Both the position numbers and the translations under genes were made by a program. A stretch of DNA of 64,000 nt from Escherichia coli (GTDB lineage: Bacteria; Pseudomonadota; Gammaproteobacteria; Enterobacterales; Enterobacteriaceae): the NCBI RefSeq assembly GCF_045037415.1, contig NZ_CP173438.1; one strand, written 5' to 3'. Position 1 is the stretch's first letter. Each line of letters starts with the position of its first letter. The notes under the pieces are model-generated. The model searched no databases. It saw only the letters and a program-made list of their open reading frames with translations, and was not told where the DNA came from. This document shows, piece by piece, positions 59,738 through 62,050 of this stretch.

Positions 59738-61171
59738 CTAATTATTCTGATAAATATCTTTATACAAACGGCTTTCAAAACGCACTAACGGAATACGGCG
59801 ATTACGCTGATCCGCCGGTTCTACTGCATAGCCAGAAAGATATTGCACAAACGCCATTCGTTGCCCGCTCGCTGTGGTAATGAATCCCGCCAGGTTATAT
59901 ACCCCCTGCAACGAACCGGTTTTCGCTGAGACTTTTCCATCCACGCCCGCCTGATGCAGACCTGCACGGTACTGCAAAGAGCCGTCATAGCCCGCCAGCG
60001 GCAGCATGGAGATAAAGTTAAGTTCATTGTCGTGTTGGGCAATATATTGCAGCACCTGCATCATGGTGGCGGGGGCAATCAGGTTATGCCGCGAAAGCCC
60101 TGAACCATCGGCAATAATGGTGTTTCCGATATCGACACCGGCTTGCTGGCGCAGGATCTGACGCACGGCGTCCGATCCGGCCCGCCATGTTCCAGGCACA
60201 TTGAAGCGCGCATGGCCGATCATGCGGAAAACCGTATCGGCAATCATGTTGTCCGACTTTTTCAGCATAATCTTAAGCAGATCGTGCAGCGGGGCCGACT
60301 GTTTACTGGCAACTACCGTTCCAGGTTCGTTAACCTGAGTCTGGCGCAGCAGTGTTCCGCTCCAGGCGATACCCGCCTGTTTTAACTCATCTTTCAGAAT
60401 TGCCCCGGCATAGCTGGCACCATCCTGCACGGCAAAAGCCAACGGGAGCGGCTCAGAACGTTGTGGCAGGCATCCCGTTAGCGTAAAGCGGTTCAGGTCA
60501 CCTGGTACGACATCCAGTTCGCAGTATTGCGCTTCGGCAGAACCACGGGGGAGGGTGCGTACCTGGCTGAACATCGTAACGGGGTAATAAGATGCCACGC
60601 GTATAAAAGCCATATCACCAGGTTTTGGGGCACTGTAGAGCGAGACGGAGAAACAGTTGCGGTCAACTATGGCGGCGGCAGGCGGTGCGCTAAAGCATTG
60701 TGTCATGTCATTCCATGGCCAGCCGGGGGCTTTATCGTGGCTGGCGAAAATGGAGGTATCTATCAACACATTGCCATCGATTTGGTTGACGCCAGATTTT
60801 TTCAAAGTCGTGACCATATTGCGAATATCCTGACGTTTTAACGTCGGATCGGCACCAAATCGCGCAACTAAGTCACCCTTAAGTACGCCGTTTTCCACAT
60901 TGCCTTTGGTTTCAAGCGTCGTGGTAAAACGAAAATCGGGGCCGAGTTGAATCAACGCCGCCAGCGCAGTAATCACTTTCTGCGTACTGGCGGGTAGCGC
61001 CATCTGCTGACTGTGGTAATCAATAGCGGGGGCCGACGCGCCGACTTTTTGCACCATCAGGGCAAGGTTGGCACCTGCGGGGAGTTGAGTAATGTACTCA
61101 TCAACATTTGCGGCCTGAACACTGAACGCTATACAGCTGGTCAATCCGATGATAAATCTGGAAAATCGCAT
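59738..61171 (-). CDS. dacB: D-alanyl-D-alanine carboxypeptidase/endopeptidase PBP4
   Basis: 477-aa ORF with signal peptide and SxxK active-site motif (STQK). Confidence 0.93.
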   Translation of the reverse strand: MRFSRFIIGLTSCIAFSVQAANVDEYITQLPAGANLALMVQKVGASAPAIDYHSQQMALPASTQKVITALAALIQLGPDFRFTTTLETKGNVENGVLKGDLVARFGADPTLKRQDIRNMVTTLKKSGVNQIDGNVLIDTSIFASHDKAPGWPWNDMTQCFSAPPAAAIVDRNCFSVSLYSAPKPGDMAFIRVASYYPVTMFSQVRTLPRGSAEAQYCELDVVPGDLNRFTLTGCLPQRSEPLPLAFAVQDGASYAGAILKDELKQAGIAWSGTLLRQTQVNEPGTVVASKQSAPLHDLLKIMLKKSDNMIADTVFRMIGHARFNVPGTWRAGSDAVRQILRQQAGVDIGNTIIADGSGLSRHNLIAPATMMQVLQYIAQHDNELNFISMLPLAGYDGSLQYRAGLHQAGVDGKVSAKTGSLQGVYNLAGFITTASGQRMAFVQYLSGYAVEPADQRNRRIPLVRFESRLYKDIYQNN

Positions 61172-61236
61172 AATCTCGCGCTAACAACCTGGAATCGAGC
61201 CGTCATACTACGGCGCAACGCCCTATAAAGTAAACG

Positions 61237-61325
61237 ATGACCCTTCGGGAACTCCAGGGTAAAATGACTATCAAAATGTGAATTGTAGCTGACCTGGGAC
61301 TTGTACCCGGGTCGGTATTTTTTTG
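61237..61325 (+). ncRNA. graL: greA P1 promoter plus leader terminator (GraL short leader RNA)
   Basis: -35 ATGACC (61237..61242), 17-bp spacer, -10 TAAAAT (61260..61265); leader hairpin gacctggg..cccgggtc followed by a T7 run (61291..61324), about 95 bp upstream of the greA ATG. Confidence 0.4.
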
Positions 61326-61418
61326 CTTCTGGTCCCGGTGAGGAGTTATGCCGGGCAGGCCGAACAGCCGGGGTGGGTGAAGACTTGCCCCATCAGGAAT
61401 ATTCAAGAGGTATAACAA

Positions 61419-61895
<477 letters not shown>

Positions 61896-61938
61896 GAATT
61901 ACCCAATACTCAAGATGTTGATGTATTGTAAAGAAAGG

Positions 61939-61964
61939 AAAAAGGCCGCTATGCGGCCTTTTAT
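61939..61964. terminator. Bidirectional terminator between convergent greA and yhbY
   Basis: aaaaa-ggccgc-tat-gcggcc-ttttat. Confidence 0.75.
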
Positions 61965-62050
61965 CAACGAACAGAGCGTGGCATTTTGCTCTCCTGCCTG
62001 CGGAAAACCCCTCGTTTTACACAGCGAATGTGTGTAACTTTAGGATAATC

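Follow-up and report, generated by a model that had tools for sequence, protein, structure and literature searches.

The window, the whole 64,000-nucleotide stretch of DNA analysed here, is part of an Escherichia coli chromosome carrying obgE, dacB, greA, yhbY and rlmE, and the order rlmE-yhbY-greA-dacB-obgE is also found in the K-12 MG1655 record. The ORF map and the K-12 annotation place the feature under study in the divergent intergenic region between dacB and greA; this assignment was made because the flanking genes are annotated as dacB and greA in matched E. coli genomes. The elements of the region, with the basis of each assignment, are as follows:

59738-61171, minus strand: dacB open reading frame, 477 aa (ORF map, E. 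coli annotation)
61237-61242, plus strand: -35 hexamer ATGACC of the greA sigma-70 promoter P1 (motif scan; the exact hexamer is a presumed assignment)
61248-61254, plus strand: -35 element GGAACTC of the greA sigma-E promoter P2 (comparison with NC_000913.3 and the published consensus)
61260-61265, plus strand: -10 hexamer TAAAAT of P1 (motif scan; 17-nt spacer from ATGACC)
61270, plus strand: P1 transcription start, +1 = A (derived from published landmarks)
61270-61287, plus strand: 5' segment of GraL (+1 to +18), mostly unpaired in the minimum-free-energy (MFE) fold (folding)
61270-61328, plus strand: GraL RNA family, with P1 transcripts of 49-59 nt and P2 transcripts of 37/38-47/48 nt (K-12 identity and publications)
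61271-61275, plus strand: -10 element TCAAA of P2, 16 nt after its -35 element
61281-61282, plus strand: P2 transcription start (published spacing, ApA primer, product lengths)
61288-61316, plus strand: terminator hairpin, in which an 11-bp stem (61288-61298 paired to 61306-61316) encloses a 7-nt loop (61299-61305) (folding, covariation)
61317-61328, plus strand: A-U7-GCUU tail, ATTTTTTTGCTT (sequence; published 3' ends 61318-61328)
61329-61418, plus strand: remainder of the greA 5' UTR, in read-through mRNA only; includes the published P3/P4 signals and the ribosome-binding site
61419-61895, plus strand: greA coding sequence, 158 aa (E. coli genomes annotate the product as transcription elongation factor GreA)

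The identity of the locus was assessed by genome comparison and by a search of Rfam. A 401-nt query across the dacB-greA gap was present in 5425 of 5426 complete E. coli genomes, with at least 99% identity in 5416 of them. The Rfam family RF01769 (Enterobacteria greA leader) matched 61202-61323 over its full length (model positions 1-124) and scored 128.2 bits, where the gathering score is 60 (E = 8.1e-25). Positions 61270-61328 (+1 to +59) were identical to MG1655 (NC_000913.3), and the only intergenic differences between the window and MG1655 were 61254 C/T, 61340 G/A and 61391 C/T, the last two falling in the remainder of the greA 5' UTR (61329-61418). Since all three lie outside GraL, GraL itself is the same as the characterised K-12 allele, and from this sequence agreement we infer that the strain of the window would behave like K-12. 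We are thus almost certain that the feature is the published E. coli greA promoter-leader encoding GraL, with overlapping promoters, an early terminator and read-through into greA; nothing contradicting the GraL identification was found. The feature is already known and curated in Rfam, and is real but ordinary. In the K-12 RefSeq record (NC_000913.3, 3328716-3328962), the gap between greA and dacB has neither an RNA nor a regulatory annotation for GraL, although GraL is published and in Rfam.

Conservation was assessed across Enterobacterales. One genome per species was scanned for the conserved 16-mer AAAGTAAACGATGNCC, which lies just upstream of and includes the P1 -35 element. The scan returned at least 120 loci; among the matches listed, 41 lay upstream of greA and 79 failed the greA filter, most of these 79 being chance matches in unrelated taxa. 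The greA-upstream loci among the matches listed came from Escherichia, Citrobacter, Enterobacter, Klebsiella, Kosakonia, Kluyvera, Pluralibacter, Siccibacter, Mangrovibacter, Pantoea, Erwinia, Serratia, Yersinia, Photorhabdus, Acerihabitans, Plesiomonas and Morganella. The alignment (n = 41) comprised the window and 40 listed leaders, the Morganella leader being set aside because it diverged too far; Pectobacterium, Brenneria, Dickeya and Tatumella also contained the pattern and fell outside the set through a simple filter on the GreA N-terminus. Because selection used an exact promoter 16-mer, the set over-represents conserved leaders.

A sequence-only reading of this DNA had placed a sigma-70-like promoter, ATGACC-17-TAAAAT, ahead of the leader, and this arrangement is indeed present at 61237-61265. 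It was the only match of at least 9/12 on the plus strand in the promoter scan. It scored 9/12, and 2 promoter-like sites were found in 2 kb against 2.5 expected from shuffles; by motif alone, the P1 hexamers are no better than chance. P1 is considered validated because the published start mapping fits, not because of its motif. In its legend, the source gives the P1 consensus as TTGACA-N17-TATAAT (PMC2836576). Setting +1 at A61270 reproduces the numbered landmarks of the literature, namely the greA AUG at +150 (61419), a pre-hairpin segment from +1 to +18, a hairpin region from +19 to +48 (61288 and 61317) and the end of the U-rich tail at +59 (61328) (PMC6829880). The published ApU (P1) and ApA (P2) primers likewise agree with AT at 61270-61271 and AA at 61281-61282, and the P1 products of 49-59 nt would end at 61318-61328, in the U7GCUU stretch. 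The gap of only 4 nt from TAAAAT to A61270 is unusually short for the distance between a -10 hexamer and +1. Across the 41 aligned leaders among the matches listed, the P1 -10 hexamer was TAAAAT in 35, TAGAAT in 5 and TAAACT in 1, and the +1 dinucleotide was AT in 38.

The sequence-only reading had left out the sigma-E promoter P2, as it had the imprecise, multi-site termination and the feedback by GreA through GraL in cis. In K-12, P1 (sigma-70) and P2 (sigma-E) are two strong overlapping promoters mapped 11 bp apart, and the P2 consensus is GGAACTT-N16-TCNAA (PMC2836576). The corresponding motif in the window is GGAACTC-16-TCAAA, its -35 element one change from that of K-12, the strain for which promoter activity is published. 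The change is at 61254, where the window has C and K-12 has T, so that the K-12 -35 element is the perfect consensus GGAACTT. Over 61225-61285, 798 of 5425 E. coli genomes matched the window exactly and all others were at least one base off; DH1, a K-12 derivative, showed exactly one difference. The C and T forms of the P2 -35 ending were each found in other genera (41 leaders among the matches listed), and since both endings occur across genera, 61254 C/T is natural variation. The P2 -10 element was TCAAA in 33 of the 41 aligned species among the matches listed. The P2 start itself is placed 11 bp downstream of P1 in the 2010 paper (61281), and the product lengths of the 2019 paper imply 12 (61282).

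Downstream of the promoter, the sequence-only reading had proposed a hairpin at about 25-50 nt followed by a run of seven T residues, about 95 bp before the greA start codon. The hairpin was found at 61288-61316, 23-51 nt past the -10 hexamer, and the T7 run at 61318-61324; its last T lies 95 nt before the greA ATG at 61419. The arms are GCTGACCTGGG (61288-61298) and CCCGGGTCGGT (61306-61316), the loop is ACTTGTA, 7 of the 11 stem pairs are G-C and the T7 run begins one base past the stem, giving the GC-rich hairpin and immediate U tract of an intrinsic terminator. In the MFE fold, +9 to +13 additionally pair with the U-tract as a weak 5-bp outer helix. The RNA at 61270-61328 had a folding energy of -21.4 kcal/mol (z = -4.17), which none of 200 shuffles equalled; the terminator hairpin is above chance. 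The 161-nt leader as a whole folded modestly better than shuffles (z = -2.07). A start-stop frame, ATG-TGA, lies inside GraL at 61276-61281; it has no obvious ribosome-binding site, occurs in 2 of the 41 aligned leaders among the matches listed and is probably due to chance.

The aligned leaders give comparative evidence for the stem. Among the 41 leaders from the matches listed, 92% of cells of the 11-pair stem were standard pairs, against 20-54% when the partners were slid by 1-3 columns, and 8 of the 11 pairs had changes on both sides. In these same 41 listed leaders, the stem scored 0.425 for covariation and shuffles 0.240; none of the 500 shuffles reached 0.425, and RNAalifold found the same helix independently. 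An earlier comparison of GraL in four species likewise reported that 17 of 18 stem substitutions keep pairing (2010 publication, PMC2836576). The terminator stem is kept through compensatory changes in enteric bacteria. Among the matches listed, the tail takes the form TTTTCTTTTGCTT in most genera and ATTTTTTTGCTT in E. coli and Citrobacter, and the +1 to +18 segment differs between genera. Four Photorhabdus leaders among the matches listed have weaker hairpins and interrupted T tracts, which makes termination in Photorhabdus doubtful.

The sequence anatomy, K-12 identity, Rfam match, stem covariation and absence of an antiterminator described in this work come from the present analysis; start sites, termination efficiency, transcript release and GreA feedback are taken from the K-12 literature (PMC2836576; PMC6829880). 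The K-12 experiments comprised Northern blots, release assays, primer extension and lacZ fusions that carried or lacked the terminator, together with in vitro transcription by each of the two holoenzymes (PMC2836576). The published terminator is an 11-bp stem followed by AU7GCU2, at which about two-thirds of transcripts stop (PMC2836576). Termination occurs at many adjacent positions, with 3' ends 1 nt apart over about 10 nt in K-12, and yields clusters of 50-60-nt and 40-50-nt RNAs that were named GraL (PMC2836576). These RNAs are released from polymerase in a bead-release assay, are Gre-insensitive in vitro and are visible on Northern blots; GraL from a single copy was hardly detectable on the 2010 blot (PMC2836576). 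When the terminator was added to a P1P2-lacZ fusion, activity fell about 4-fold from that of P1P2 alone, to the level of the fusion with the whole region (PMC2836576). A literature search for independent 3'-end data returned no paper with specific Term-seq results on greA/GraL.

These data bear out the prediction that the arrangement would produce short terminated leader RNAs and read-through greA mRNA in the manner of GraL, which has been demonstrated experimentally in K-12, whose +1 to +59 is identical to that of the window (PMC2836576; PMC6829880). The short leader transcripts on which that reading depended are reported both in vitro and on Northern blots of K-12 (PMC2836576). A transcription start downstream of the hairpin would have told against it; the literature holds no such start, as the downstream primer-extension signals P3 and P4, with no more than 17 and 6 Miller units, were attributed to processing (PMC2836576).

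About two-thirds of the RF01769 model, positions 1-68, aligns to 61202-61269, upstream of the P1 start at 61270. In the 41 leaders among the matches listed, the upstream helices of the model (through position 71) had a covariation score of 0.038 against 0.030 in shuffles, and both sides had changed in 1 pair, where 1.3 were expected; for helices 1-3 this test is one-sided, their 3' halves being fixed by the search pattern. Because these helices precede +1 and lack covariation, the RF01769 score partly reflects conserved promoter DNA and not RNA structure. The hexamer ATACTA at 61205-61210 is invariant in 41 of 41 leaders among the matches listed and is not forced by the search pattern. Its minus-strand reading is TAGTAT; on that strand TTTACT (61234-61229) precedes it by 18 nt, and the dacB ATG, at 61171, follows about 35 nt further on. 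The TAGTAT and TTTACT pair scores 8/12, under the threshold of the promoter scan. TAGTAT/TTTACT is a candidate divergent dacB promoter, whose putative -35 element would adjoin that of greA P1. The conserved 5' part of RF01769 may accordingly represent the DNA of two back-to-back promoters, those of dacB and greA, and not RNA structure.

At the other end of greA, which converges with yhbY, a perfect 10-bp hairpin, AAAAGGCCGC-TAT-GCGGCCTTTT, lies between the two genes at 61940-61962. It is flanked on either side by A/T runs and has the appearance of a bidirectional terminator that both genes share. STnc420 and STnc540 were matched at 61924-61969 with 20-21 bits against gathering scores of 38-70 and were rejected; these sub-threshold matches were caused by the greA/yhbY terminator hairpin.

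Other explanations of the leader were weighed against this evidence. It is very improbable that the leader is a classical switch attenuator, in which an antiterminator, a leader peptide or an aptamer decides terminator formation, as in the trp leader or a riboswitch, and that reading is already largely refuted. A "clear antiterminator structure" was reported in greA-leader candidates in a computational survey (Naville and Gautheret 2010, PMC2965389), and the RF01769 model draws several helices upstream of the terminator; however, those helices map to 61202-61272, almost wholly before the mapped start, and show no covariation in the 41 aligned leaders, and only 18 nt are transcribed ahead of the stem. 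With the 3' arm forbidden, the best fold of +1 to +47 reached -0.2 kcal/mol, against -18.9 for the hairpin, and constrained folding found no antiterminator in the transcribed leader. The sole open frame is the ATG-TGA at 61276-61281, in 2 of 41 aligned leaders, and no conserved leader ORF that could encode a leader peptide was found in these 41 leaders among the matches listed. The Rfam search matched no riboswitch family to the leader, and termination efficiency is constant through growth (PMC2836576). Since it has no alternative fold, no conserved leader ORF and no aptamer, the leader is not a switch attenuator, and because the transcribed leader lacks a competing fold, its terminator is effectively unconditional at the RNA level. 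The possibility that a chance promoter-like match merely sits beside a chance hairpin, without function, is negligible: the promoter scan did return no more sites than shuffled sequence, but the hairpin z of -4.17, the compensatory stem changes across 41 species among the matches listed, the Rfam match (E = 8e-25) and direct published biochemistry (PMC2836576) all stand against it.

It is also improbable, though less so, that the locus serves chiefly to encode a trans-acting small RNA, with GraL (acting, for example, on nudE mRNA) as the functional product and control of greA read-through as a by-product. GraL overproduction alters more than 100 transcripts and GraL improves fitness (PMC2836576; PMC6829880), and a later screen, as described in text citing it, names nudE as a likely GraL target (Dylewski 2018). 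No direct GraL target was found in the 2010 paper, however, and the terminator alone explains the approximately 4-fold drop in downstream expression (PMC2836576). Published greA fusions were unaffected by GraL in trans, GraL is required in cis for GreA feedback (PMC6829880), and the inter-genus variation of +1 to +18 is a poor fit to a conserved seed region. The cis and trans roles of GraL are not mutually exclusive; the trans role, with nudE as candidate target, has been proposed and is less secure than the cis role.

The preferred reading, that of the published greA promoter-leader with its early terminator, would work as follows. P1 (sigma-70, A61270) and P2 (sigma-E, near 61281) would fire 11-12 bp apart, producing 18 nt of unstructured RNA from P1, or 7 nt from P2, before the GC-rich 11-bp hairpin and the A-U7-GCUU tail. 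About two-thirds of polymerases would stop at 61318-61328 and release GraL RNAs, and the remaining third would read on to give greA mRNA with a 149-nt leader. The leader would thus act as a partly efficient, constitutive terminator 19 nt past the start site. In vivo, catalytically active GreA would raise termination here, a negative feedback that would need the GraL sequence in cis and an extra factor; released GraL may act in trans as well, with nudE as its proposed target.

The feedback step draws on K-12 experiments. Catalytically active GreA reduces read-through and increases GraL independently of the promoter, and the effect requires the sequence of +1 to +18 as well as that of the hairpin (PMC6829880). 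Scrambling of +1 to +18 weakened GreA autorepression, and deletion of the region downstream of +59 left autoregulation unaffected (PMC6829880). Purified components failed to reproduce the stimulation of termination by GreA in vitro (PMC2836576; PMC6829880), which implies another factor. Speculatively, and we consider it rather unlikely, the broad U7GCUU window may be a kinetic sensor of RNA polymerase secondary-channel occupancy, with hesitating or backtracked polymerases being pushed to release by active GreA and an accessory factor. Were this so, the cell would gauge GreA activity at the gene's own leader, and the need for +1 to +48 would reflect factor binding to nascent GraL. The idea was raised by the 2019 authors as the simplest model and failed in purified in vitro transcription (PMC6829880).

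Comparison with known systems places the feature precisely. It shares locus, stem and AU7GCU2 tail with GraL of K-12 (Potrykus et al. 2010, NAR 38:1636; Dylewski et al. 2019, IJMS 20:5224), and the distances agree: the greA AUG stands at +150, and the A of the dacB ATG falls at -99 by the present count, one base from the -98 in print; it differs by the three intergenic single bases, of which 61254 falls in the sigma-E -35 element. Like ordinary Rho-independent terminators, it has a GC-rich hairpin with a direct U-rich tract and, in published K-12 work, terminates in vitro independently of factors. Ordinary terminators lie at gene ends and produce 3' ends at 1-3 positions, whereas that of GraL lies 19 nt past the start, ends at about 11 positions and, unlike ordinary intrinsic terminators, is only about two-thirds efficient. 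The 2019 authors compared GraL with the SreA riboswitch of Listeria (PMC6829880), which is likewise an early-terminated leader with cis control and a proposed trans role; unlike SreA, GraL has no ligand-binding aptamer or alternative fold, and its effector, GreA with an extra factor, raises termination rather than relieving it. Early terminators ahead of Gre-family genes recur across phyla, in the greA/rnk-family leaders of Proteobacteria, bacilli and clostridia (Naville and Gautheret 2010, PMC2965389). Those leaders are computational predictions with proposed antiterminators, whereas no antiterminator is possible in the transcribed part here.

The window leaves existing knowledge of the greA leader unchanged, and its value is that of a positive control, in which an experimentally characterised regulatory element was recovered from sequence alone. 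The GraL leader helps to set the level of GreA, which acts globally as a factor for transcription fidelity and against arrest.
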